Assembly: GCF_058153355.1 (NCBI RefSeq)
Contig: NZ_CM177019.1
Direction: 5' to 3' (one strand)
DNA length: 64,000 nt
Positions 7,557-55,409 of this stretch are shown here, in pieces. The notes under the pieces are model-generated. The model saw nothing but the letters and a program-made list of their open reading frames with translations, made no database searches and was not told the origin of the DNA. Position 1 is the first letter of the stretch; each line of letters begins with the position of its first letter. A program made the position numbers and the translations under genes.

Positions 7557-9110
7557 ATGATGAGAACTGTATTTACGACTTTATCAGTCATATTCAGCGT
7601 GATGTTTTCTCACAGTATACTAGCTCAGGACGTTACTATTTATTATACGAATGATATTCACGCACATGTCAATCCGGCAAAAATTCCCGCTGTTGATAAG
7701 AACAGACTTGTAGGTGGTATGGCTAATATTGCAGGCATCGTTAATGAAGCGAAGAAAAAAAACAAAGATGTCTTTTTCTTTGATGCAGGCGACTATTTTA
7801 CCGGTCCGTATATCAGTACCCTGACCAAAGGTGAAGCTATTATTGATATCATGAACACCATGCCCTTTGATGCGGTATCCGTTGGTAATCACGAGTTCGA
7901 TCACGGCGTGCCCAATATGGTATCTCAGTTATCAAAAGCAAAATTCCCCATTCTGCTGGGAAATATTTACTACACCGATACAAATAAACCAGTTTGGGAT
8001 CATCCGTGGACCATTATCGAAAAAGATGGTTTAAAGATTGGTGTGATTGGATTGCATGGTGCATTCGCTTTCTATGATACAGTCGCGGCAAAAGCACGTG
8101 AAGGCGTAGAAGCCAGAGACGAAATTAAATATTTAAATAAAGCACTTGCAGAATTAAAAGGTAAAGTCGACATTACCGTTTTGCTAATTCACGAAGGTGT
8201 TCCGGCGCGTCAATCAAGCTTTGGTAGTAAAGATGTGGAGCGGCTACTACAGGCAGATATTGAGACAGCTAAAAAAGTGAATGGTGTTGATGTCTTAATT
8301 ACCGGTCACGCACATGTCGGAACACCGCAACCAATAAAAGTTAATAACACATTAATTGTATCTACCGATGCATACGGCACCGACATCGGAAAACTTGTGC
8401 TTGATTACAATCCGAAAACGAAGAAAATTGATAGTTATAATGGTGAGTTAATCACCATCTTCGCAGATCAATTTAAACCTGACACCATCGTTCAAAATAC
8501 TATCGATAAATGGAGTGCAAAGCTTAACAAAATAACACAGGAAGTTGTCGGCCATTCTCCCGTAGTTTTAACACGTGAGTATGGCAGTTCTTCTTCTACC
8601 GGTAACCTTATTCTTGATGCAATGATGGAAAAAACACCAGATGCCATTGCCGGATTTCAAAATAGCGGTGGGATGCGAGCTGATTTTCCTAAAGGTGATA
8701 TCACGCTGGGAGATGTTATTAGCACATTCCCCTTTAATAATGACCTCATCGAGATGGATTTGACGGGCCGCGATCTCAAATCGTTGATGACGCATGCAAC
8801 CAATCTAACTAACGGTGTGTTACAGGTTTCAAAAAGCGTTGCGGTTGTCTATGACAGCAAAAAACCACTGAACCAACGGTTAATCTCTTTCACCATTAAC
8901 GGCAAACCCGTGGAAGATAATCAAACATATCGTATTGTCACGCACTCCTTTTGTGCCAGTGGTGGTGACGGTTTTGAAGCATTTTTGAATGGAAAAAATG
9001 TGAAGACGATACCGGGAACAACCTCGGCGGAATCTATCATCGATTATTTCAAAAATCATAAACCTGTCACCCCAGACTTAACTAAACGAGTAATGGACGT
9101 CGCCAAATAA
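7557..9110 (+). CDS. secreted bifunctional metallophosphatase/5'-nucleotidase-family protein, paralog 2
   Basis: AAGGAGGG immediately upstream (ATG 7557 or 7560). Signal peptide, then NDIHAH, DAGDYF, GNHEFD, GHAH motifs; colinear with paralogs 1 and 3. Confidence 0.85.
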   Translation: MMRTVFTTLSVIFSVMFSHSILAQDVTIYYTNDIHAHVNPAKIPAVDKNRLVGGMANIAGIVNEAKKKNKDVFFFDAGDYFTGPYISTLTKGEAIIDIMNTMPFDAVSVGNHEFDHGVPNMVSQLSKAKFPILLGNIYYTDTNKPVWDHPWTIIEKDGLKIGVIGLHGAFAFYDTVAAKAREGVEARDEIKYLNKALAELKGKVDITVLLIHEGVPARQSSFGSKDVERLLQADIETAKKVNGVDVLITGHAHVGTPQPIKVNNTLIVSTDAYGTDIGKLVLDYNPKTKKIDSYNGELITIFADQFKPDTIVQNTIDKWSAKLNKITQEVVGHSPVVLTREYGSSSSTGNLILDAMMEKTPDAIAGFQNSGGMRADFPKGDITLGDVISTFPFNNDLIEMDLTGRDLKSLMTHATNLTNGVLQVSKSVAVVYDSKKPLNQRLISFTINGKPVEDNQTYRIVTHSFCASGGDGFEAFLNGKNVKTIPGTTSAESIIDYFKNHKPVTPDLTKRVMDVAK

Positions 9111-29501: not shown

Positions 29502-30512
29502 ATGAGACGAGAACTTGCCATCGAATTTTCCCGCGTCACCGAATCTGCGGCGCTGGCTGGCTACAAATGGTTAGGACGCGGCGATAAAAACACCGCGGAC
29601 GGCGCAGCGGTTAACGCCATGCGCATTATGCTCAACCAGGTCAACATTGACGGTACCATCGTCATTGGTGAAGGTGAAATCGACGAAGCGCCGATGCTCT
29701 ACATTGGTGAAAAAGTCGGTACCGGTCGCGGCGATGCGGTAGATATTGCTGTTGATCCGATTGAAGGCACGCGCATGACGGCGATGGGCCAGGCTAACGC
29801 GCTGGCGGTGCTGGCAGTAGGCGATAAAGGCTGCTTCCTCAACGCGCCGGATATGTATATGGAGAAGCTGATCGTCGGACCGGGAGCGAAAGGCGTCATT
29901 GATCTGAACCTGCCGCTGGCGGATAACCTGCGCAATGTTGCGGCGGCGCTCGGCAAACCGTTAAGCGAACTGACGGTAACGATTCTGGCGAAACCACGCC
30001 ACGATGCTGTTATCGCAGAAATGCAGCAACTCGGCGTGCGCGTATTTGCTATTCCGGATGGCGATGTGGCAGCCTCAATTCTCACCTGTATGCCAGACAG
30101 CGAAGTTGACGTGCTGTACGGTATTGGTGGCGCGCCGGAAGGCGTGGTTTCTGCGGCGGTGATCCGCGCATTAGATGGTGACATGAACGGTCGTCTGCTG
30201 GCACGTCATGACGTCAAAGGCGACAACGAAGAAAATCGCCGCATTGGCGAGCAGGAGCTGGCGCGCTGCAAAGCGATGGGCATCGAAGCCGGTAAAGTAT
30301 TGCGTCTGGGCGATATGGCACGCAGCGATAACGTTATCTTCTCTGCCACCGGTATTACCAAAGGCGATCTGCTGGAAGGTATTAGCCGCAAAGGCAATAT
30401 CGCCACCACCGAAACACTGCTGATCCGCGGTAAATCACGCACCATTCGTCGCATTCAATCCATCCACTATCTGGATCGTAAAGACCCGGAAATGCAGGTG
30501 CACATTCTCTGA
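29502..30512 (+). CDS. glpX: fructose-1,6-bisphosphatase class II
   Basis: Native start MRRELAIEFSRVTESAALAGYKWLGRGDKN, 336 aa. Confidence 0.93.
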   Translation: MRRELAIEFSRVTESAALAGYKWLGRGDKNTADGAAVNAMRIMLNQVNIDGTIVIGEGEIDEAPMLYIGEKVGTGRGDAVDIAVDPIEGTRMTAMGQANALAVLAVGDKGCFLNAPDMYMEKLIVGPGAKGVIDLNLPLADNLRNVAAALGKPLSELTVTILAKPRHDAVIAEMQQLGVRVFAIPDGDVAASILTCMPDSEVDVLYGIGGAPEGVVSAAVIRALDGDMNGRLLARHDVKGDNEENRRIGEQELARCKAMGIEAGKVLRLGDMARSDNVIFSATGITKGDLLEGISRKGNIATTETLLIRGKSRTIRRIQSIHYLDRKDPEMQVHIL

Positions 30513-30532
30513 GTGATTTGATCGATTGAGCC

Positions 30533-30562
30533 TTCCAGTCCTTCGGGACTGGAATTTTTTTG
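30533..30562 (+). terminator. rho-independent terminator after glpX
   Basis: TCCAGTCC-TTCG-GGACTGGA hairpin followed by ATTTTTTT. Confidence 0.8.
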
Positions 30563-30608
30563 TTCGGAGAACGAAGATAAGGCAAGTCAATCAAAACAGG
30601 AGAAAAAC

Positions 30609-31355
30609 ATGGCTGATTGGGTAACAGGCAAAGTCACTAAAGTGCAGAACTGGACCGACGCCCTGTTTAGTCTCACCGTTCACGCTCCCGTGCTTCCATT
30701 TACTGCCGGGCAATTCACCAAACTAGGCCTTGAAATTGACGGCGAACGCGTCCAGCGTGCCTATTCCTACGTTAACTCTCCTGATAATCCCGATCTGGAG
30801 TTTTACCTGGTGACCGTCCCCGATGGAAAATTAAGCCCACGATTAGCGGCACTGAAACCGGGCGATGAAGTACAGGTGGTTAGCGAAGCAGCTGGCTTCT
30901 TTGTGCTGGATGAGGTCCCTGACTGCGAAACACTGTGGATGCTGGCAACCGGTACAGCGATTGGCCCTTATTTATCAATTCTGCAACGGGGCAAAGATTT
31001 AGATCGCTTCAAAAATCTGGTTCTGGTTCACGCCGCACGTTATGCCGCCGACTTAAGTTATCTGCCACTGATGCAAGAACTGGAAAAACGCTACGAAGGG
31101 AAACTGCGCATTCAGACGGTGGTCAGTCGGGAAACGGCGGCGGGTTCGCTCACCGGGCGAATACCGGCGTTAATTGAAAGTGGTGAACTGGAAAGTGCGG
31201 TGGGCTTGCCGATGGATAAAGAAACCAGCCATGTGATGCTGTGCGGCAATCCACAGATGGTTCGCGATACGCAACAGTTGCTAAAAGAAACCCGGCAGAT
31301 GACGAAACATTTACGTCGTCGACCGGGCCATATGACAGCGGAGCATTACTGGTAA
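30609..31355 (+). CDS. fpr: ferredoxin/flavodoxin-NADP+ reductase
   Basis: 248-aa ORF MADWVTGKVTKVQNWTDALFSLTVHAP. Confidence 0.93.
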   Translation: MADWVTGKVTKVQNWTDALFSLTVHAPVLPFTAGQFTKLGLEIDGERVQRAYSYVNSPDNPDLEFYLVTVPDGKLSPRLAALKPGDEVQVVSEAAGFFVLDEVPDCETLWMLATGTAIGPYLSILQRGKDLDRFKNLVLVHAARYAADLSYLPLMQELEKRYEGKLRIQTVVSRETAAGSLTGRIPALIESGELESAVGLPMDKETSHVMLCGNPQMVRDTQQLLKETRQMTKHLRRRPGHMTAEHYW

Positions 31356-31359
31356 GCGG

Positions 31360-31788
31360 TTACTTGTCGATAAACGGCACGATGAGCAGATCCGCTTTCA
31401 ACTTATTGATCATCCCGCGGTATGCCGGCATCAAACGGTTGATAAATGAGTGGTGATGACCACAGACAAGGAGGTCGCACTGCTCTTGTTGCATAATATC
31501 CAGCAGTGTTTCCGGCATTTCCCCACGTTCAATACGCAGTTTTGTCTTCGGCCATTGAATATTTTTCGTCAGTTTATACAGCTTGTTATCCGACTTATTC
31601 TTCAACAATTGAAGAATATCCTCTGTTGCAGGGAAGTAGATACCCGGATACAACTCGCTTAAGCCATCATCAATATGAATTAACGTCAGGTGAGCGTCAT
31701 TATGTCTGGCGAGCTCCAGGGCTTTATTCACCAGTAAGGCATCTTCTTCATTCCCGGAAATTGCCACGCCAATGTGTTTATAAGCCAT
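31360..31788 (-). CDS. uspD: universal stress protein D
   Basis: 142-aa [30 protein letters not shown]. Confidence 0.92.
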
Positions 31789-31814
31789 GTTTAACTCCTT
31801 CTAAAGCAACTCCA

Positions 31815-32114
31815 TCAAGCTAACGAACGCAGTGATAACTCAAAAATAATCATCTCGGCCTGGCATGAGAAGGTGAAGGCCGCATCAAGCTCAACTTGCC
31901 CCTCCAGATCCTTAATCTTATAGGCCACGCTGGCCCCTTCATCCGCAGAGGATGCAGCGGCGGCAAGCTCTTTCAGTTTAGTCATAAAGGACTCTGCTTC
32001 TTCGCGGGTGGCAAAAAAGCGCGAAAACTTACTGGTACAGTTGTCGTTATCAATCACCGTACCGATATCAATCGCACATCCTTTAGTACTGCATTTATCT
32101 ACGACATCTTTCAT
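31815..32114 (-). CDS. yiiS: DUF406/UPF0381 family protein YiiS
   Basis: 99-aa ORF in the conserved position between uspD and yiiR. Confidence 0.85.
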
Positions 32115-32325
32115 AGGGCACCTCTGTATATTCGCCTCTCTGTCGATTACGACTTAAGAATAATGCGCCGTTAAGGGAAGAACAAACAAGTAATGATCTT
32201 ATGGATTACCATTTTTTTTGATATTGCTTAAGGTGAAGAGATCAGAAGGATTTTCCGGGCATTGTCATTTTCAACGTGGAAATAACAAACCCGGAAAAAA
32301 ATAGCAGTAAGAGATATATTAAAGG

Positions 32326-32766
32326 TTAATTACTTGATTTATTGTCGGCTTTATACTTCACATCCTCGGTATCTTTACCATATTTATTTTCGCCTTGTGT
32401 GCCAACAAACGCACCAAGATCGATAAGCATCATCACCAGAATCAACGTCGGGACAAAACGCCCCACCGCCCATTGCCAGACACCAGGTAAAATCGCCCAG
32501 TTACCCGCCAGCAGCATCCACGCCACAATCATCAGAAATGCCCATGCGCCGGAACGCCCGCGATCATGCAAGCGCTTAACGGTTACTGCCGCTGTTGGCC
32601 AAAGCAAGCACACAAGGCAAAACGCCGCGGTCTGAATATCGAGTAAATTTTTACCCGCCAGTGAGAAAAGCACCAGCATGCCTGCGAACCACAGGCCTAT
32701 CCAAATCCAGAAATCACGGCGTCCAATACGCCCTTTAAATGAAAATAACCATTGCTGTATGGTCAT
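32326..32766 (-). CDS. yiiR: DUF805 inner-membrane protein YiiR
   Basis: 146-aa hydrophobic ORF MTIQQWLFSFKGRIGRRDFWIW. Confidence 0.85.
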   Translation of the reverse strand: MTIQQWLFSFKGRIGRRDFWIWIGLWFAGMLVLFSLAGKNLLDIQTAAFCLVCLLWPTAAVTVKRLHDRGRSGAWAFLMIVAWMLLAGNWAILPGVWQWAVGRFVPTLILVMMLIDLGAFVGTQGENKYGKDTEDVKYKADNKSSN

Positions 32767-32866
32767 GTAAGTTCCTTGATGGTTGTCTTTTCCAGGATTC
32801 TACCCTTTTGACAAGGGCGACAGATATCGTTTTAATCGGAGCCAGTCATAACAAAAGGTACTGTCA

Positions 32867-33466
32867 ATGAAGCCAGGGTGTACGCTGTTTTTTCTCTTAT
32901 GTTCTGCATTAACCGTTACAACAGCGGCGCATGCACAAACACCAGATACGGCAACAACCGCGCCTTATCTGCTGGCTGGAGCCCCTACTTTCGATCTCTC
33001 CATCAGCCAGTTTCGAGAAGACTTTAACAGCCAGAACCCCAGCCTGCCACTGAACGAATTTCGTGCCATCGACAGCAGTCCCGACAAAGCCAATCTCACT
33101 CGTGCTGCCAGTAAAATTAATGAGAACTTGTATGCTTCTACAGCGCTGGAGCGCGGTACCTTAAAAATCAAAAGCATTCAAATGACCTGGCTACCCATCC
33201 AGGGGCCAGAGCAAAAAGCCGCGAAAGCGAAAGCTCAGGAATACATGGCAGCGGTGATCCGCACACTCACCCCATTAATGACCAAAACACAAAGCCAGAA
33301 AAAACTGCAGTCGCTACTAACGGCGGGGAAAAACAAACGTTATTACACCGAGACCGAAGGTGCACTGCGTTATGTTGTCGCGGACAACGGCGAAAAGGGG
33401 CTGACCTTCGCTGTTGAACCGATTAAGCTGGCGCTATCTGAATCGCTTGAAGGTTTGAATAAATGA
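32867..33466 (+). CDS. yiiQ: DUF1454 periplasmic protein YiiQ
   Basis: 199-aa ORF with signal peptide; conserved position upstream of tpiA. Confidence 0.85.
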   Translation: MKPGCTLFFLLCSALTVTTAAHAQTPDTATTAPYLLAGAPTFDLSISQFREDFNSQNPSLPLNEFRAIDSSPDKANLTRAASKINENLYASTALERGTLKIKSIQMTWLPIQGPEQKAAKAKAQEYMAAVIRTLTPLMTKTQSQKKLQSLLTAGKNKRYYTETEGALRYVVADNGEKGLTFAVEPIKLALSESLEGLNK

Positions 33467-33573
33467 CAAAAAGCAAAGCCTTTGTGCCGATGAATCTCTA
33501 TACTGTTTCACAGACCTGCTGCCCTGCGGGGCGGCCATCTTCCTTTATTCGCTTATAAGCGTGGAGAATTAAA

Positions 33574-34341
33574 ATGCGACATCCTTTAGTGATGGGTAAC
33601 TGGAAACTGAACGGCAGCCGCCACATGGTTCACGAGCTGGTTTCTAACCTGCGTAAAGAGCTGGCAGGTGTTGCTGGCTGTGCGGTTGCAATCGCACCAC
33701 CGGAAATGTACATCGATATGGCGAAGCGCGAAGCTGAAGGCAGCCACATCATGCTGGGTGCGCAAAACGTGGACCTGAACCTGTCCGGCGCATTCACCGG
33801 TGAAACCTCTGCTGCTATGCTGAAAGACATCGGCGCACAGTACATCATCATCGGCCACTCTGAACGTCGTACTTACCACAAAGAGTCTGACGAACTGATC
33901 GCGAAAAAATTCGCGGTGCTGAAAGAGCAGGGGCTGACTCCGGTTCTGTGCATCGGTGAAACCGAAGCTGAAAACGAAGCGGGCAAAACTGAAGAAGTTT
34001 GTGCACGTCAGATCGACGCGGTACTGAAAACTCAGGGTGCTGCAGCATTCGAAGGTGCGGTAATCGCTTACGAACCAGTATGGGCAATCGGTACTGGCAA
34101 ATCGGCAACTCCGGCGCAGGCACAGGCTGTTCACAAATTCATCCGTGACCACATCGCTAAAGTTGACGCTAACATCGCTGAACAAGTGATCATCCAGTAC
34201 GGCGGCTCTGTAAACGCGTCTAACGCTGCAGAACTGTTTGCTCAGCCAGACATCGACGGCGCGCTGGTTGGCGGTGCTTCTCTGAAAGCTGACGCTTTCG
34301 CAGTGATCGTTAAAGCTGCAGAAGCGGCTAAACAGGCTTAA
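33574..34341 (+). CDS. tpiA: triosephosphate isomerase
   Basis: 255 aa; [15 protein letters not shown]; catalytic motifs ([18 protein letters not shown]). Confidence 0.97.
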
Positions 34342-34350
34342 GTCTGACAG

Positions 34351-34380
34351 GTGCCGGATTTCATATCCGGCACTTACTTT
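34351..34380 (+). terminator. rho-independent terminator after tpiA
   Basis: GTGCCGGATTTCATATCCGGCAC palindrome followed by TTACTTT. Confidence 0.75.
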
Positions 34381-34395
34381 CCTTAACTCCTCGCC

Positions 34396-35151
34396 TTAAC
34401 GCAAAATCTCACACTGATGATCCTGGATTTCCTCGGCTGAAGCACGGTTCAGCGTCAGTAGATTTCGTTGTGTCGCCAGCAACACAAACGAATTATCACT
34501 CTGCCGCACCATCGCCAGCCCGTAGCTTCCCATATGTTCCCGCGCCTCAGGCACTTCTTCTGCAAGCATCATAAATGGACTGCGTTGTACCAGTTCGCTT
34601 TCCGTTACCCGACGCGCCAGATATTCATGCCCGCGCAAGCCACCTGGCAGCGGCAACCAGCGACTGCTGATGTTCGCCAGATTATTATCCAGCTGTTCGC
34701 GCACATCAGGGCGAATACAAGAGATATGAATATGAAAATGGTTTTGCGTACGTCCGGTGCGGGAGTTAATCGCTAAAGAAACCGCGCGATCGGGAACCGG
34801 CTGCCCATATTTTTTACTCATAAAATCACGCGCCTGCCAGGCCAACCAAAAAAAGTTAGGCGTAGAAGGATCGGTCAACAAAGGGCTTTCAGTACCGTTA
34901 ATACGATACGTTGGCATCAACAGATATTGCAGTGGACCATTGAGGTCTTTTAAAACCACATATCCGGCATTGGGTTTGACTTCCGCACATGGCGAAGGAT
35001 TTTGATTTTGCTGCTGATTGGGTAAACATTCCTCAAGGACAATCTTACGTAATGTATCCGACTCTTCGCCGGTTAATTTCCAGTAACCAATACCAGCAGC
35101 CACAACGGCGATAACTATCATCACCAAAAAAAGAAGACCCGCTTTTTTCAT
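34396..35151 (-). CDS. cdh: CDP-diacylglycerol pyrophosphatase
   Basis: Native start [24 protein letters not shown] (ATG 35151), 251 aa; ORF-track start 35343 is an upstream extension. Confidence 0.92.
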
Positions 35152-35257
35152 CTTTTTTTCCCTGTACCTCAAAGAGATGCAAGGGTAACGCAAAATCGTG
35201 ACAAATAAAAAACCCGGTCGCGAGAAACCACCGGGGTTGATAATTATCCTGGGGAAA

Positions 35258-36247
35258 TCAGCGTTTGCTGATCTGATCGAACGTACCGCCGTTAGCAAAA
35301 TGCTCTTTTTGCGCTTTCGTCCAGCCGCCGAACTCTTCATCAATGGTGAATAACTTCAATTTTGGAAACGCATTTTCGTACTTTTTCGCTACCTCAGCGT
35401 CGCGCGGACGGTAGTAGTTTTTCGCGGCAATTTCCTGACCTTCTGGCGAGTAGAGATATTTCAGGTAGGCTTCCGCCACCTCTTTAGTACCTTTTTTCTC
35501 AACCACTTTATCGACCACCGACACGGTTGGCTCTGCGAGGATAGACTCACTCGGCGTGACGATTTCGAATTTATCTTTCCCCAGTTCATTCGCTGCCAGC
35601 AGAGCTTCGTTTTCCCAGGCAATCAGTACATCGCCAATTCCGCGCTCGACAAAAGTGTTAGTGGAGCCGCGCGCGCCAGAATCCAGAACTTCGACGTTTT
35701 TATACAGTGCCCGAACAAAATCCTGCGCTTTTGCCTGATCGTTGTTGTTGTGGTGCAGCGCGTAGCCCCAGGCAGCCAGGTAGTTCCAGCGCGCGCCACC
35801 AGAGCTTTTCGGATTAGGCGTGATCACCGAAACACCCGGTTTAATCAGATCGTTCCAGTCATGGATCTGCTTCGGATTGCCCTTACGTACCAGGAAAACA
35901 ATGGTGGAAGTGTACGGTGCGGAGTTATCCGGCAGACGTTTGATCCACTCTTTATCAATCCGCCCGCGTTCCGCAATTGCGTCCACGTCATAGGCCAGAG
36001 CCAGAGTGACAACATCAGCTTCAATACCATTGATTACCGACGTCGCTTGTTTGCCTGAACCACCGTGTGACTGACGAATCACCACGTTATCGCCAGTTTG
36101 CTGTTTCCAGTGGGCGCTGAATGCCTTGTTGTACTGTTCGTACAATTCGCGCGTTGGATCATATGAAACGTTAAGAAGCTGAATATCCTTTGCCATAACG
36201 CTGGTTGCCGCCAGCAAAAATGTTAACCCTACGCCCCACTTGTTCAT
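35258..36247 (-). CDS. sbp: periplasmic sulfate-binding protein
   Basis: 329-aa [39 protein letters not shown]. Confidence 0.95.
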
Positions 36248-50358: not shown

Positions 50359-50362
50359 ACAC

Positions 50363-50397
50363 TGCCGGATGCGGCGCGAGCGCCTTATCCGGCCTAC
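50363..50397. repeat. REP palindromic unit, rhaA-rhaD intergenic
   Basis: TGCCGGATGCGGCGCGAGCGCCTTATCCGGCCTAC. Confidence 0.8.
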
Positions 50398-50440
50398 GGG
50401 TCGTGCATCCGACAACACCGAATTTACAGGAACACAGAAC

Positions 50441-51265
50441 ATGCAAAACATTACCCAGTCCTGGTTTGTCCAGGGAATGATCAAAGCCACCACCGACGCC
50501 TGGCTGAAAGGCTGGGACGAGCGCAATGGTGGTAACCTGACGCTGCGCCTGGATGACGCCGATATCGCACCGTATCACGACAACTTTCATGCACAACCGC
50601 GCTATATCCCGCTCAGCCAGCCCATGCCTTTACTGGCAAATACACCGTTTATTGTCACCGGCTCCGGCAAATTCTTTCGTAACGTCCAGCTTGATCCTGC
50701 GGCTAACTTAGGCGTCGTAAAAGTCGACAGCGACGGCGCGGGCTACCACATTCTCTGGGGGCTAACTCACGAAGCCGTTCCAACCTCTGAACTTCCGGCT
50801 CACTTCCTTTCCCACTGTGAGCGCATTAAAGCCACCAACGGTAAAGATCGGGTGATCATGCACTGCCACGCCACCAACCTGATCGCCCTTACCTACGTAC
50901 TGGAAAACGACACCGCGCTCTTCACTCGCCAGCTTTGGGAAGGCAGCACCGAGTGTCTGGTAGTGTTCCCGGATGGCGTCGGCATTTTGCCGTGGATGGT
51001 GCCCGGCACGGACGAAATCGGCCAGGCGACCGCACAGGAAATGCAAAAACATTCGCTGGTGTTGTGGCCCTTCCACGGCGTCTTCGGCAGCGGTCCGACA
51101 CTGGATGAAACATTCGGTTTAATCGACACCGCAGAAAAATCAGCACAAGTATTAGTGAAGGTTTATTCGATGGGCGGCATGAAACAGACCATCAGTCGTG
51201 AAGAGCTGATAGCACTCGGCCAGCGTTTCGGCGTTACACCACTAGCCAGTGCGCTGGCGCTGTAA
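50441..51265 (+). CDS. rhaD: rhamnulose-1-phosphate aldolase
   Basis: Native start [37 protein letters not shown], 274 aa; ORF-track start 50351 is extended upstream across the REP. Confidence 0.96.
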
Positions 51266-51274
51266 GGAGCAAAC

Positions 51275-51589
51275 ATGATCCGCAAAGCCTTTGTCATGCA
51301 GGTTAACCCCGACGCCCACGAAGAGTATCAGCGTCGGCATAATCCAATCTGGCCGGAACTGGAAGCAGTGTTGAAATCTCACGGTGCGCATAACTACGCC
51401 ATTTACCTCGACAAAGCGCGTAATCTGCTGTTTGCCACGGTAGAGATTGAATCTGAAGAACGGTGGAATGTGGTAGCCAGTACTGATGTTTGCCAACGTT
51501 GGTGGAAGTATATGACCGACGTTATGCCAGCTAACCCGGACAACAGCCCAGTCAGTAGCGAGCTGCAAGAAGTGTTTTACCTGCCTTAA
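51275..51589 (+). CDS. rhaM: L-rhamnose mutarotase
   Basis: 104-aa [49 protein letters not shown]. Confidence 0.95.
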
Positions 51590-51593
51590 TGAG

Positions 51594-51624
51594 TTGCGGT
51601 GCCGGAAAATATCCAGCACCGCGC
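51594..51624. terminator. putative bidirectional terminator hairpin between rhaM and the porin gene
   Basis: GCGGTGC...GCACCGC inverted repeat with a 13-nt loop between convergent genes. Confidence 0.4.
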
Positions 51625-51629
51625 CTTCA

Positions 51630-53024
51630 TCAGAAGAAGTATTTAAAGCGAACGCGTGCGCCGTAACGGTCATCAGTATCATCACCGTGTTTTTTATCAC
51701 CGTCGCTATCCAGAATGGAGTAATAAGTACCAAGGTAAATATTAAAGTTCTCCATATCCATCACATTAGCGAACTGATAAGACGCATGAATGGTGTGAAT
51801 GGTGTACGTCCCTTCATCATCAATCCAGCAGTCGTTATCACAAACTACACCGCTGAATTCATCAATCTTATTGTGCGCGTAGATATAACCCAGCTCGAAA
51901 CGTTTCCACAGCGCGTTAATCCCGGCAGTGAAATCTTTTTCATTATTAGCATCTAAATAGGCGGTATTAAGATTAACCACGACGCCATTTTCCGGATCCG
52001 TTTTCAGGCCATTCCAGGTCATGCTCATACCATAGCCGGTACGATCGGACTGATCGACAAAATTACCCTTGCTATCGGTATAACCATAAGCATTATTTAC
52101 TACGTTCGCTTCCATCGCTGCGGAAACGGTGAATTCTTCCGTCGGCGACCAGGCAATTACCGGACGCAGATAAGCAACATTTTTCTGCTGCTTCATATCG
52201 CGTCCATGATAATTACCGTCATTATATAAAGATGTTCCGTCTTCAAGTAACGTGTTTAATTCAAAATACCAGTTATCGAGTTGTTTGCTGACGAGGAAAT
52301 TACCGCCAGCGTTAGAGCGCCCGCGGCCCTCTTTCATCATATAGATATAACCGCTGCCATCGTCATAAAGATCGTTCGCAGTATTACCGGAATGTTCAAC
52401 AAAGGTATCCTGATTCAGCGGGAACATATCGTAGGCTTCAAAACGGCCTACTTTGACCTTCCAGTCGTTTTCTTTGCCAAAGAAGAATACCGCATCATCG
52501 ATATTTACTGAACCGTGCATATCCCCCAGCGGTTGTGCGGAGAACCCGGCGAAATAACCATTATCCAGTTTTCGCATACCATCAAAACCTAACAGAATAC
52601 GACCATTGAGATTCCACTGTTCATTAGTGGGATCGCTATTCACATCAGCGTTGGTCATTGCCAGCAGGCCATGATTACTTTCCGCATCCATATTAAATTC
52701 TACGTCGCCGTAGATTTTTAAATCGCCATAACCTGAAAGCAAAAGATTAGGTGAGGTGGCATTTTTCTTTGCAGATTCCGCCGTTGTCTGTCCATTTACC
52801 GGCGTATTGCCCTGGGCAGCCTTAATTTCGCGGATCTCAGCGGCTTGTTGTGTCTGCAGCTGTTTTACCTGCCCCTCTGCTTTTGCTGCCCGCATTTCTG
52901 CCGCTTCCAGGCGTTCTTCCAGCAATGCCATGCGTTGTTCCAGCGTTAAATGCTGTGTTTTTGCCATTCCGGTACTACATGCCAATAATAAACCGATGGC
53001 TAAAGATAATGTCGATTTTTTCAT
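51630..53024 (-). CDS. putative outer-membrane carbohydrate-selective porin (OprB/ScrY-like: N-terminal coiled coil plus beta-barrel)
   Basis: 464-aa ORF with signal peptide MKKSTLSLAIGLLLACSTGMA, about 50 aa of coiled coil (LEQRMALLEERLEAAEMRAAKAEGQVKQLQ), an aromatic/Gly-rich alternating region and C-terminal ...RFKYFF typical of OM beta-barrels. Family assignment is inferred. Confidence 0.6.
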   Translation of the reverse strand: MKKSTLSLAIGLLLACSTGMAKTQHLTLEQRMALLEERLEAAEMRAAKAEGQVKQLQTQQAAEIREIKAAQGNTPVNGQTTAESAKKNATSPNLLLSGYGDLKIYGDVEFNMDAESNHGLLAMTNADVNSDPTNEQWNLNGRILLGFDGMRKLDNGYFAGFSAQPLGDMHGSVNIDDAVFFFGKENDWKVKVGRFEAYDMFPLNQDTFVEHSGNTANDLYDDGSGYIYMMKEGRGRSNAGGNFLVSKQLDNWYFELNTLLEDGTSLYNDGNYHGRDMKQQKNVAYLRPVIAWSPTEEFTVSAAMEANVVNNAYGYTDSKGNFVDQSDRTGYGMSMTWNGLKTDPENGVVVNLNTAYLDANNEKDFTAGINALWKRFELGYIYAHNKIDEFSGVVCDNDCWIDDEGTYTIHTIHASYQFANVMDMENFNIYLGTYYSILDSDGDKKHGDDTDDRYGARVRFKYFF

Positions 53025-53500
53025 TATTTACGTTCCCTGAAATAAAAGATACCCTACGCTTTCCAAAAGGAATACGTATATAGAGAAATATAAGGTGTGC
53101 ACTTTCGAATTTTTAATCCAACTTCAGCAGGCCGATGGATAGTATCCCGCTGCATAATATGAGTAAATCCGCTGATTTCCTGGAACGTGAGGAATATAAC
53201 AATAGTGCCGTTTTTAACTAAATATCGTAAAAAATATTAGATATAATTCACGCTGACTCATAAGCCACAAATATAAATAACCTTGCTGCAAAATATGTGC
53301 GGCAGTTAAACATTCACAACATCATTAAATAATGATTTTTTATTCACTGCATTTATTTTTCCCATCAATATGTGCCTTACACCGCAAAATTTATCCTTCA
53401 CTCTGCCTTATATTGTCACGACTTCACGACATATCCGCGCTCATCACAAAACCGCCCCGCCGTTACAATTAACTATAATATTTTTTCATGGAGTCCAATA

Positions 53501-53947
53501 ATGGCAGCACTTACTGCAAGCTGTATTGACCTGAATATTCAGGGCAATGGCACTTATTCCGTTCTGAAGCAGTTAGCGACAATGGCGTTACAAAACGGTT
53601 TTATCACCGACTCACATCAATTCCTGCAAACCCTGCTGGTGCGCGAAAAAATGCACTCCACCGGTTTTGGTTCTGGTGTCGCCGTGCCGCACGGTAAAAG
53701 CGCCTGTGTTAAACAACCGTTCGTATTATTCGCTCGCAAAGCGCAGGCCATTGACTGGAAAGCCAGCGATGGCGAAGACGTCAATTGCTGGATCTGCCTC
53801 GGCGTGCCGCAAAGTGGCGAAGAGGATCAGGTCAAAATCATCGGCACACTGTGTCGCAAAATTATCCACCAGGATTTTATCAACCAACTGCGACAAGGCG
53901 ACGCCGTCCAGGTGCTTGCTTTGTTAAATCAAACCCTCAGCTCATAA
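53501..53947 (+). CDS. frvA: PTS fructose-like EIIA component
   Basis: Native start MAALTASCIDLNIQGNGTYSVLKQ, 148 aa; ORF-track start 53372 is extended upstream. Confidence 0.92.
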   Translation: MAALTASCIDLNIQGNGTYSVLKQLATMALQNGFITDSHQFLQTLLVREKMHSTGFGSGVAVPHGKSACVKQPFVLFARKAQAIDWKASDGEDVNCWICLGVPQSGEEDQVKIIGTLCRKIIHQDFINQLRQGDAVQVLALLNQTLSS

Positions 53948-53957
53948 GGAAGTGGCG

Positions 53958-55409
53958 ATGGAGTCATCCTTACGTATTGTCGCGATCACCAACTGCCCCG
54001 CCGGGATCGCTCACACCTACATGGTGGCGGAAGCCCTGGAACAGAAAGCCCGTTCTCTCGGTCATACCATTAAAGTTGAAACTCAAGGATCAAGCGGCGT
54101 CGAAAACCGCTTATCCAGCGAAGAGATTGCCGCTGCCGATTACGTGATTCTCGCTACCGGGCGTGGCCTGAGCGGTGATGATCGCGCGCGATTTGCCGGG
54201 AAAAAGGTTTATGAGATTGCCATCTCCCAGGCGCTGAAAAATATCGACCAGATTTTCAGTGAATTACCGACAAACTCACAACTTTTTGCCGCAGATAGCG
54301 GCGTGAAGCTCGGCAAACAGGAAGTGCAAAGTGGCAGCGTAATGAGCCATCTGATGGCGGGCGTCTCTGCGGCGCTGCCGTTTGTCATCGGTGGCGGTAT
54401 CCTGGTGGCGCTTGCCAACATGCTGGTGCAGTTCGGTTTGCCGTATACCGATATGTCGAAAGGTGCGCCGTCGTTTACCTGGGTGGTTGAATCCATCGGT
54501 TATCTCGGTTTCACCTTTATGATCCCCATCATGGGCGCTTATATTGCCTCGTCGATTGCCGATAAACCCGCTTTCGCTCCGGCGTTTCTGGTTTGTTATC
54601 TGGCGAACGACAAAGCCCTGCTCGGCACCCAGTCTGGCGCGGGCTTCCTCGGTGCGGTGGTGCTTGGGCTGGCGATTGGCTATTTCGTCTTCTGGTTCCG
54701 TAAAGTGCGCCTTGGCAAAGCATTACAACCGCTGCTCGGTTCCATGCTGATCCCGTTCGTTACTCTGCTGGTTTTTGGCGTACTGACTTACTACGTTATC
54801 CGACCGGTGATGTCCGACCTCATGGGCGGGTTGCTGCACTTCCTGAACACCATTCCTCCGTCAATGAAGTTTGCGGCGGCGTTTCTGGTTGGTGCGATGC
54901 TGGCATTCGATATGGGCGGCCCCATCAACAAAACCGCCTGGTTCTTCTGCTTCTCTCTGCTGGAAAAACACATTTACGACTGGTACGCCATCGTCGGCGT
55001 TGTCGCGCTAATGCCGCCTGTCGCGGCGGGTCTTGCGACGTTCATTGCGCCCAAACTGTTTACTCAACAGGAAAAAGAAGCCGCCAGTAGCGCCATAGTG
55101 GTCGGTGCCACAGTCGCAACCGAACCGGCTATTCCTTACGCTCTGGCAGCCCCGTTGCCGATGATTACCGCCAATACGCTGGCGGGCGGTATTACCGGCG
55201 TGCTGGTGATCGCTTTCGGAATCAAACGTCTGGCACCTGGTTTGGGTATCTTTGACCCGCTGATCGGCCTGATGTCGCCGGTAGGTTCGTTTTATCTGGT
55301 GCTGGCGATTGGCCTCGCGCTGAACATTTCATTCATTATCGTCCTGAAAGGATTATGGTTACGCCGCAAAGCCAAAGCTGCGCAACAGGAGCTTGTCCAT
55401 GAACATTGA
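53958..55409 (+). CDS. frvB: PTS fructose-like EIIBC component
   Basis: MESSLRIVAITNCPAGIAHTYM (EIIB Cys) followed by a polytopic EIIC domain, 483 aa; ATG 53958 is 8 nt after AAGGA. Confidence 0.93.
   Translation: MESSLRIVAITNCPAGIAHTYMVAEALEQKARSLGHTIKVETQGSSGVENRLSSEEIAAADYVILATGRGLSGDDRARFAGKKVYEIAISQALKNIDQIFSELPTNSQLFAADSGVKLGKQEVQSGSVMSHLMAGVSAALPFVIGGGILVALANMLVQFGLPYTDMSKGAPSFTWVVESIGYLGFTFMIPIMGAYIASSIADKPAFAPAFLVCYLANDKALLGTQSGAGFLGAVVLGLAIGYFVFWFRKVRLGKALQPLLGSMLIPFVTLLVFGVLTYYVIRPVMSDLMGGLLHFLNTIPPSMKFAAAFLVGAMLAFDMGGPINKTAWFFCFSLLEKHIYDWYAIVGVVALMPPVAAGLATFIAPKLFTQQEKEAASSAIVVGATVATEPAIPYALAAPLPMITANTLAGGITGVLVIAFGIKRLAPGLGIFDPLIGLMSPVGSFYLVLAIGLALNISFIIVLKGLWLRRKAKAAQQELVHEH

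Follow-up and report, generated by a model that had tools for sequence, protein, structure and literature searches.

The gene that lies between rhaM and frvA in the window (the whole stretch of 64,000 nucleotides that was analysed) encodes an orthologue of RafY that is carried on the Escherichia chromosome. RafY, an outer-membrane 'glycoporin', was originally described from the raffinose plasmid pRSD2; the orthologue belongs to the same family, TCDB 1.B.15/PF16966. We consider it probable that the product is a wide passive sugar channel, orphaned from the raf genes, which would serve as a carbon-scavenging porin controlled by cAMP-CRP. The gene is real but ordinary, its family, its annotation and the name rafY2 all being known already, and the literature yielded no experiment on this chromosomal gene.

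The minus-strand ORF (Table 1) opens with ATG and comprises 464 codons followed by a TGA stop; the 464-aa protein starts with MKKSTLSLAIGLLLACSTGMA|KTQ and ends in RVRFKYFF. It is convergent to rhaM (51275..51589, plus strand), with 40 bp between the two genes. On the other side frvA starts at 53501 (MAALTAS...), a start that matches annotated relatives, and the intervening 476-bp spacer holds no supported ORF in the ORF list. In 200-nt windows the spacer has a GC content of 30-40%, the genes flanking it 52-58%, and the porin gene itself 41-52%. An earlier sequence-only reading had described just such a 464-aa ORF followed by about 475 bp of AT-rich non-coding DNA, in agreement with the ORF list and the GC windows. 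An Rfam search of 51000-54000 gave no match above noise. The GC-rich hairpin lying between the two convergent stop codons is likely, judging from its sequence and position, to be a transcription stop shared by rhaM and the porin gene; it has no T-run and was not called in a terminator scan.

Table 1. Coordinates of the porin gene and of the features assigned to its locus
Feature	Position	Strand	Basis
Porin gene, chromosomal RafY-family glycoporin	51630..53024	-	ORF, Pfam, PGAP annotation, exact NCBI sequence, identity to plasmid raf-operon porin
Signal peptide, residues 1-21	52962..53024	-	sequence; orthologue conservation
Periplasmic coiled-coil extension, putatively of ScrY type, residues 26-71	52812..52949	-	AF2 helix; Sugarporin_N matches in family
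Beta-barrel domain, residues 104-464	51633..52715	-	Pfam extent, AF2 strands, Foldseek
GC-rich hairpin GCGGTGCCGG...CCAGCACCGC between rhaM and porin stop codons	51596..51622	.	sequence
Divergent AT-rich control region, porin gene/frvA, 476 bp	53025..53500	.	
CRP-like site TGTTATATTCCTCACG	53186..53201	-	predicted; invariant across loci
Predicted promoter P1	53139..53167	-	conserved elements at fixed spacing
Leader hairpin ACGUAUUCC-UUUU-GGAAAGCGU	53056..53077	-	covariation
Strain-variable segment, 1775 bp	51591..53365	.	junction alignment + BLAST

Family and architecture of the porin

The protein matches the Pfam profile PF16966 (Porin_8, "glycoporin RafY") with E=2.8e-154 and a score of 514 bits, the curated cut-off being 25; residues 104-464 align to profile positions 1-372 of 372, and the same profile is matched by 42/42 aligned relatives. 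An identical protein sequence is listed at NCBI under the name "carbohydrate porin [Escherichia coli]", 'carbohydrate porin' is also the RefSeq/PGAP name, and the O157:H7 homologue has been named rafY2, rafRABD being absent (PMC4809568). No family match was obtained in NCBIfam. The porin encoded after rafR-rafA-rafB-rafD on IncF plasmids (NZ_CP091039.1), which from its operon structure is probably the pRSD2 RafY, shows 77.8% identity to the chromosomal protein over 464 aa. Both this RafY and its counterparts on present-day raf plasmids have the same length of 464 aa and the same signal peptide, coiled coil and barrel build, and the coiled-coil stretch LTLEQRMALLEERLE is identical to that of the chromosomal porin; in contrast, their signal peptides are unrelated and the chromosomal gene is without adjoining rafRABD. 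At the DNA level the plasmid homology is limited to the coding region (window 52948-51626, 82%).

A signal peptidase I (SPase I) cleavage is predicted after GMA (residue 21) from the conserved G-x-A|KT of the orthologues, and the protein would be exported by means of this cleavable signal peptide. Residues 13-16 (LLAC) fit the lipobox pattern in the Escherichia alleles only. The AlphaFold2 model (mean pLDDT 81 overall) contains a helix at residues 28-71 (pLDDT about 85-89), with L28, L35, A42, A49 and L56 at heptad position a and M32, L39, A46, V53, Q60 and I67 at position d. The N-terminus scores below the cut-off of 25.7 with Sugarporin_N (PF11471; E=0.031, 15 bits), a domain that matches 11/42 family members at E<=0.01 (best 5.9e-07). 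The remainder of the model is a beta-barrel of 16 strands at residues 100-463, with pLDDT mostly >90, and the C-terminal residue, F464, is aromatic; 16 strands have likewise been predicted for the RafY family (PMC4827864). Invariant residues cluster in a long, highly conserved loop (residues 195-240), which probably folds inward and constricts the pore, so that the mature protein would be a 16-stranded barrel with this loop inside it and a periplasmic coiled-coil stalk before it. The signal peptide, N-terminal coiled coil and barrel-like C-terminus with an aromatic end had been recognized in the sequence-only reading, and both the sequence and the AlphaFold2 model agree with them; barrel prediction gave the 16-stranded form, and the alternative of a soluble non-barrel protein was not borne out.

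That reading had likened the protein to sugar porins of the ScrY/OprB type. Its Pfam assignment is indeed to an outer-membrane carbohydrate-porin family with an N-terminal coiled coil, but this family is PF16966 (RafY/Porin_8) rather than OprB or LamB/ScrY. One has to weigh whether the protein is a substrate-specific LamB/ScrY (or OprB) sugar porin with a saturable binding site that serves one carbohydrate pathway. ScrY and LamB likewise function in outer-membrane oligosaccharide uptake, the coiled coil, alone among the parts of the protein, appears to resemble the comparable periplasmic extension of ScrY, relatives are located in raf or sucrose-type operons, and OprB of P. putida (4gey) is the fourth-best Foldseek match, with 10% identity and TM 0.49/0.53. 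Against this, a Pfam scan at E<=1 detected neither LamB (PF02264) nor OprB (PF04966), and a sequence search of the PDB recovered only chance matches, to dehydroquinase, and no relative, though structures of LamB and ScrY exist. ScrY and LamB have 18 strands as opposed to the 16 predicted here, the barrel has no sequence match to theirs, and no LamB or ScrY chain is found among the top 50 Foldseek matches. The best solved structures are instead 16-stranded porins such as VhChiP, Omp38, OmpU and OmpF/C, and the 16-stranded trimeric porins VhChiP, OmpF/OmpC and Omp32, together with DcaP, match with TM about 0.6 on target length. They have a long internal loop in common with the porin, and DcaP also an N-terminal coiled coil, but they fall into other Pfam families and their sequence identity is only 10-14%. 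On the model, with its predicted count of 16 strands, the barrel appears closer to the general porins and chitoporins than to the 18-stranded LamB/ScrY.

As regards function, RafY is reported to complement lamB and scrY mutants (Ulmke et al. 1997), and plasmid RafY is reported to be a large pore for general diffusion that has no sugar-binding site (Andersen et al. 1998), which speaks further against a specific porin. We regard the specific porin as improbable. For the wide passive channel, homology suggests that di- to oligosaccharides (raffinose, sucrose, maltodextrins etc.) would cross the outer membrane faster than through OmpF/OmpC.

Locus history and selection

Of 5426 complete E. coli genomes, 2542 carry the strain-variable segment and 53% are without it. 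In K-12 MG1655 rhaM and frvA are only 300 bp apart, with no porin gene between them; this strain shares only 53366-53500 of the spacer (77% identity), and its equivalent of the 1775-bp segment is 164 bp of unrelated sequence. The possibility that these 164 bp are a rearranged remnant of the segment was rejected, as there was no significant similarity on either strand. The segment borders show no flanking repeats and no mobile-element signature. The sequence-only reading was right in holding the gene to be strain-variable and absent from K-12, as the K-12 synteny comparison and the genome counts agree, but in describing it as "inserted" between rhaM and frvA it had the polarity wrong. The order frv - porin - rhaM is kept in Citrobacter, Kluyvera, Enterobacter, Trabulsiella and others, and this conservation across genera indicates that K-12-type strains lost the gene and that there was no insertion.

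A porin gene convergent to rhaM is found in Kluyvera, Citrobacter, Klebsiella, Raoultella, Enterobacter, Trabulsiella, Pseudocitrobacter and Superficieibacter. Its adjacency to rhaM holds in at least eight enterobacterial genera, whatever adjoins the other side: in many loci frvXBA lies upstream of the porin gene, and in four (L015, L016, L021 and L022) rafR-rafA-rafB is directly upstream. In Klebsiella, Raoultella and Enterobacter, chromosomal rafR-rafA-rafB-porin clusters occupy the same place, with the porin gene convergent to rhaM, and encode an orthologous porin with 73-76% identity. Here the locus is seen in a complete form, of which E. coli is without the regulator, the alpha-galactosidase and the permease; indeed no rafRAB(D) genes are found beside the porin gene in E. 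coli. The site beside rhaM would be an ancient, conserved one, at which the porin gene in some genera closes a rafR-rafA-rafB-porin cluster; E. coli would have shed the catabolic genes and kept the orphan porin with a control region of its own, and about half of its strains, K-12 included, would have lost the porin gene too.

Two further candidates were set aside. The 476-bp spacer was examined for leftover raf genes and for traces of the plasmid rafD-rafY spacer and holds neither, the plasmid homology being confined to the coding region. Likewise, the IncK-type plasmid CP057400.1 was rejected as an ancestral MFS-GH32-porin linkage: its MFS and GH32 genes, which meet the chromosomal segment at position 53185 of the window, are 100% identical to those of BEN2908, which we take to be the fos locus.

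The linkage to rhaM raises the possibility that the porin is part of the rhamnose system, for instance in uptake of rhamnose oligosaccharides, and its persistence in at least eight genera regardless of the other flank could be read in this way. However, inherited gene order explains the adjacency equally well, the convergent orientation means that there is no shared transcript, and rhamnose use in K-12 and in half of the strains proceeds without the porin gene. A RhaS-box search of the porin upstream region with the window's own RhaS half-sites found no resemblance beyond that of shuffles, the best half-site matches being no better than these. With the convergent orientation, the lack of RhaS-box resemblance and the raf partners in other genera, nothing ties the porin to the rha or frv operons, and a rhamnose role is very hard to credit. 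The sequence-only reading had taken the place between two sugar operons to suggest a carbohydrate channel; the carbohydrate-porin family supports the channel, while nothing links it functionally to rha or frv.

Another view would have the gene be a silent relic, left behind when the raf catabolic genes were lost, functionless in E. coli and heading for deletion. The missing rafRAB(D) neighbours, the loss of the gene in 53% of genomes, the AT-rich upstream region and the frameshift-split alleles seen in some lineages are all in keeping with this. Nevertheless, dN/dS among Escherichia alleles is 0.02-0.13, even at dS=0.36-0.41, and such purifying selection, as estimated from the sequences, argues for a functional gene. 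Moreover, an intact ORF is found in such widely separated lineages as B2, O157:H7 and the divergent one to which this window belongs, and the promoter-region motif and leader hairpin (see below) are conserved within Escherichia. We therefore think a relic unlikely and retain the orphaned but functional scavenging porin.

The divergent control region

Upstream of the porin gene, TGTTATATTCCTCACG differs from TGTGA-N6-TCACA by 2 mismatches and is invariant at 32 orthologous loci, which represent at least eight genera, and lies at a fixed distance from a putative -35 element. The consensus of the 32 loci reads TGTTAyvTyGCTCACG, 18 nt, TTTAC, 17 nt, TAnTnT. In the window the predicted promoter P1 consists of a -35 element TTTACT (53167-53162), a 17-nt spacer and a -10 element TACTAT (53144-53139), with a predicted start near 53132, which would centre the CRP-like site at -61.5. 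This geometry and the conservation fit a class I CRP-dependent promoter, although the site, with its 2 core mismatches, is a prediction. A dedicated regulator different from CRP could bind instead, as the non-consensus TGTTA and TCACG are kept in all genera. Additionally, a simple promoter scan called another site, TTAAAA-18-TATATT at 53116-53087, which would place the leader hairpin at the mRNA 5' end and the CRP-like site near -113. No CRP-like motif occurs upstream of the porin gene in the Klebsiella and Raoultella loci, and the plasmid rafY copy lacks both this motif and the leader hairpin.

The predicted leader hairpin lies 32-53 nt upstream of the ATG; after it come a U-rich tract, which is conserved, and the Shine-Dalgarno sequence. 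Its sequence varies between genera while the pairing is kept, with double changes in 7/8 pairs; 79% of cells are paired, as against 59% in shuffles and 26-54% in slid controls. The support is for this local hairpin only, the whole 126-nt leader being no more stable than shuffles (z = 0.06). In the scenario proposed here, expression would be cAMP-CRP-dependent from the class-I-type promoter and modulated through the hairpin, and such dependence on CRP would point to a porin for carbon scavenging and not to one specific for raffinose or rhamnose. Being AT-rich, the control region could also be silenced by H-NS, and the gene may consequently be cryptic under laboratory conditions.

Related systems and implications

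A RafY-family chromosomal porin of K. pneumoniae, GlyP, is normally repressed, and its derepression confers an advantage in carbohydrate competition; the same preprint credits the RafY family with a wider pore than the major porins (bioRxiv 10.64898/2026.03.29.715108). The GlyP locus has the order LacI-type glyR - permease - hydrolase - porin and thus a dedicated repressor, whereas none is found near E. coli rafY2. GlyP does not occupy the rhaM-linked locus and is probably another paralogue; window-like clusters with this build (L063-L085) show 58-62% identity.

More speculatively, and with less than even confidence, we suggest that the rhaM-linked RafY orthologue may be an independently regulated 'hunger' porin of the Enterobacteriaceae, with a conserved 16-bp operator at -61.5 for CRP or a dedicated factor and a covarying hairpin beside the ribosome-binding site, and that plasmid rafY may have come from an Escherichia-like chromosomal allele. 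If so, the hairpin could be an undescribed attenuator, mRNA stabiliser or sRNA target, and the presence or absence of the porin in E. coli would alter the permeability to oligosaccharides and possibly the entry of large antibiotics, in a manner comparable to GlyP in Klebsiella. The practical relevance is modest, but the locus history, the loss in K-12, the CRP-like site and the hairpin may be useful for regulation studies. A porin of this kind, probably a wide alternative channel, is carried by roughly half of E. coli strains, O157:H7 and B2-type strains among them; it may influence how oligosaccharides are scavenged in the gut as well as the permeability of the outer membrane, as a related Klebsiella porin does.

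Family identity and protein architecture

The sequence-only reading had described a porin-like gene convergent to rhaM and separated from frvA by an AT-rich spacer, and all three features stand as described (see table). The two convergent genes lie 40 bp apart, and frvA starts at 53501, in agreement with annotated relatives. The GC content of the spacer is 30-40% in 200-nt windows, against 52-58% in the adjoining genes and 41-52% in the porin gene itself. The N-terminus of the protein reads MKKSTLSLAIGLLLACSTGMA up to the cleavage point and KTQ after it; the C-terminus is RFKYFF.

Features of the rhaM-frvA interval (window positions)
Feature	Position	Strand	Remarks
rhaM	51275..51589	plus	
GC-rich hairpin	51596-51622		inside the 40-bp rhaM/porin gap
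Porin ORF	51630..53024	minus	464 aa, ATG start; from ORF list
Porin/frvA spacer	53025-53500		476 bp
Leader hairpin	53077-53056	minus	32-53 nt upstream of ATG; pairing kept, sequence varies between genera
Predicted promoter	TTTACT 53167-53162, TACTAT 53144-53139	minus	conserved spacing across genera
16-mer TGTTAyvTyGCTCACG	53201-53186	minus	invariant in 32 orthologous loci

The earlier guess of a carbohydrate channel proved right, as the protein matches the full length of PF16966 Porin_8, 'Porin-like glycoporin RafY' (residues 104-464, profile 1-372 of 372, E=2.8e-154), and RefSeq names the gene 'carbohydrate porin'. An NCBI entry of that name is identical to the protein, its 90% cluster holds 3990 sequences, and no NCBIfam model matches. 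In O157:H7 strains without rafRABD the rafY homologue has been 'annotated as rafY2' (PMC4809568). The gene is hence one that databases already annotate, and it belongs to the known RafY family, a small one of 233 clusters (50% identity) at E<=0.001. The order on plasmids is rafR, rafA (alpha-galactosidase), rafB (permease), rafD (GH32 invertase) and then a homologous porin gene, whose product shares 77.8% identity with the window protein. DNA similarity to that gene (82%) does not extend beyond coding sequence (window 52948-51626). The nearest chromosomal orthologue of plasmid RafY is the Escherichia one (78% versus 63-70% for others).

A specific porin of the LamB/ScrY or OprB type is contradicted by profile, strand-number and fold tests. 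Of the initially noted resemblance to the ScrY/OprB type, the barrel part fails and the coiled-coil part plausibly stands. Sugarporin_N, the periplasmic extension of ScrY and maltoporin, has a sub-threshold match at residues 27-52 (E=0.031) and is found at E<=0.01 in 11 of 42 relatives (24-85% identity, from two database searches); a common origin of this coiled coil and the one in ScrY is therefore plausible. The Pfam models LamB and OprB do not match the protein even at E<=1. AlphaFold2, run on the alignment of these 42 members (mean pLDDT 81, pTM 0.71), gives the barrel that had been anticipated: a signal-peptide helix is followed by a long helix (residues 28-71, pLDDT about 85-89) in which an a/d pattern runs through six heptads, then by a linker modelled with low confidence (74-97), and lastly by sixteen long beta-strands spread over residues 100-463, for the most part at pLDDT above 90. 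The most conserved family residues sit in a long loop, 195-240, which may be the pore-constricting loop. The first Foldseek matches in the PDB are 16-stranded porins, namely VhChiP, B. pseudomallei Omp38, P. putida OprB, OmpU, Omp32 and OmpF/OmpC (TM about 0.6 on target length, 10-14% identity), with no LamB or ScrY chain in the top 50; a PDB sequence search returned no relative.

Every Escherichia allele has LLAC in its signal peptide (residues 13-16, window 52977-52988), which fits the lipobox pattern, and orthologues of other genera have LLVAN or similar there, with no cysteine. Lipidation of the Escherichia porin is conceivable from this motif, but conservation of the SPase I site GMA/KT makes the motif probably irrelevant.

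Distribution and history of the locus

The segment had been suspected to be strain-variable and missing from K-12, and this is borne out: a 2.5-kb query (rhaD' - rhaM - porin - spacer - frvA') is matched at >=80% coverage in 2542 of 5426 complete E. coli genomes, with only its flanks matched in K-12 and many others. The rhaM-frvA interval of K-12 measures 300 bp; homology stops just past the rhaM stop codon (51590) and restarts at 53366 with 77% identity, and window 51591-53365 (1775 bp) is swapped for 164 bp without similarity to any part of it. No repeats or mobile-element ends were found flanking 51591-53365. B2-type strains, exemplified by strain 550 (L003, 6826-7869), have the porin gene and about 330 bp upstream of it and lack the whole frv operon (frvABXR); the spacer leads at window about 53347-53356 into a frameshifted yiiG fragment beside fdhD.

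That the gene is a dead relic is contradicted by its conserved control elements and by dN/dS values (Nei-Gojobori) of 0.03-0.13 when the window allele is compared with four others from Escherichia, and of 0.02 for the most divergent pair of alleles (dS=0.41); it is under strong purifying selection. In some lineages the allele is broken into two ORFs, one N-terminal (113 or 122 aa) and one C-terminal (342 aa), and is therefore a pseudogene there. The split form is common (a cluster of 496 sequences; L086-L088, 2636-4029) and occurs in lineages with and without frv. The allele of strain E69 (L007, 6001-7392) differs from the window's by dS=0.36, with 93% nucleotide identity, a protein difference of only 2% and an upstream spacer only 82% identical; these alleles look like very old ones or an import from another species.

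The window as a whole is from a divergent, possibly cryptic-clade-like, E. coli lineage, because its identity to almost every complete E. coli genome is only about 97%, housekeeping tpiA, fpr and sbp included. Records at >=99% identity number only 4 for 30000-36000 and 17 for 51200-53700. Another indel difference at the rha locus is the rhaA-rhaD spacer, 82 bp in the window (50359-50440) and strain 2020CK-00188 and 450 bp in K-12 (L002, 1792-2241).

A scan of one genome per species yielded 105 relatives, whose neighbourhoods were typed by tblastn with the window Rha and Frv and plasmid Raf proteins. The closest 30-odd (67-85% identity) are nearly all convergent to rhaM, and frvXBA often lies on the far side; they come from Kluyvera, Citrobacter, Klebsiella, Raoultella, Enterobacter, Trabulsiella, Pseudocitrobacter and Superficieibacter. 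The content of the frvA-porin interval differs between genera: rafR-rafA-rafB in Enterobacter sp. JUb54, K. spallanzanii, R. terrigena and K. grimontii; two small membrane-protein genes, presumably AzlCD-like, and a small regulator-like gene in Citrobacter and Kluyvera; and no gene in E. coli. Remoter paralogues (58-62% identity) lie elsewhere in the genome after RafB-like and GH32 genes, a layout that agrees with the glyR - permease - hydrolase - porin operon of K. pneumoniae (2026 preprint). The segment had been called 'inserted', but with this order kept across genera the simplest reading is that the position at rhaM is ancestral and that the porin was orphaned in E. coli and lost in K-12-type strains, with no insertion.

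On an IncI-gamma/K1 conjugative plasmid (L005, CP057400.1, 4621-10584), an MFS transporter and a GH32 gene, 100% identical to those of strain BEN2908 and presumably the fos locus, are joined at window 53185 to a porin-rhaM-rhaD block (porin 99% aa identity); a plasmid has therefore captured part of the rha locus of E. coli, porin included. Between rhaM and rhaD, Citrobacter and Kluyvera (L006, L008, L013, L029 and others, about 7745-8895) carry a 382-aa gene (MSFMLALPKISLHGAGAI...) missing from the window and K-12; a 'fucO lactaldehyde reductase' annotated beside rhaM in one E. coli O111:H8 genome suggests the same gene.

Predicted control elements and function

Only the frvA-proximal 135 bp of the spacer are common to K-12; the porin-proximal part was aligned across genera. 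The invariant 16-mer has two mismatches to the CRP core TGTGA-N6-TCACA, and its GCTCAC also occurs in the lac CRP site. Downstream, TTTAC(N) follows at a constant distance of 18 nt, and TAnTnT 17 nt beyond that. This arrangement predicts a site at -61.5, as in class I CRP-dependent promoters, a start near 53132 and a leader of about 108 nt. The 16-mer is absent from the Klebsiella/Raoultella loci in which rafRAB abuts the porin, and from the plasmid gene.

The leader hairpin shows double changes in 7 of 8 pairs and 79% paired cells, versus 59% in shuffles (0 of 500 reach 79%) and 26-54% when the partners are shifted by 1-3 columns; on its 3' side come a U-rich tract, which is conserved, and the Shine-Dalgarno sequence. 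A simple promoter scan offers an alternative, TTAAAA-18-TATATT at 53116-53087, with which the mRNA would start at the hairpin. The whole leader is no more stable than shuffled sequence, and Rfam has no match in the spacer/porin region. A 20-nt inverted repeat spanning mid-spacer (53229-53248 / 53467-53486, 85% complementary, 218 nt apart) is probably due to chance because of composition.

A rhamnose-linked role has synteny with rhaM as the sole point in its favour, and shuffled sequence matches the RhaS half-sites of the window at least as well as the region upstream of the porin gene does. RafY reportedly complements lamB and scrY mutants and lowers the apparent Km of raffinose uptake (work by Ulmke et al. 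of 1997), and is reportedly a large general diffusion pore with no sugar-binding site (Andersen et al., 1998); this work is cited in PMC4809568 and PMC4827864. The 16-strand model fits this picture, and by homology the E. coli protein is probably a passive, wide outer-membrane channel for oligosaccharides. In Klebsiella, derepression of the RafY-family porin GlyP alone gives a carbohydrate-competition advantage (2026 preprint). The new material here is the regulatory predictions only: since E. coli has no regulator gene next to the porin gene and the conserved site resembles one for CRP, we infer that the gene may be under carbon-limitation control.
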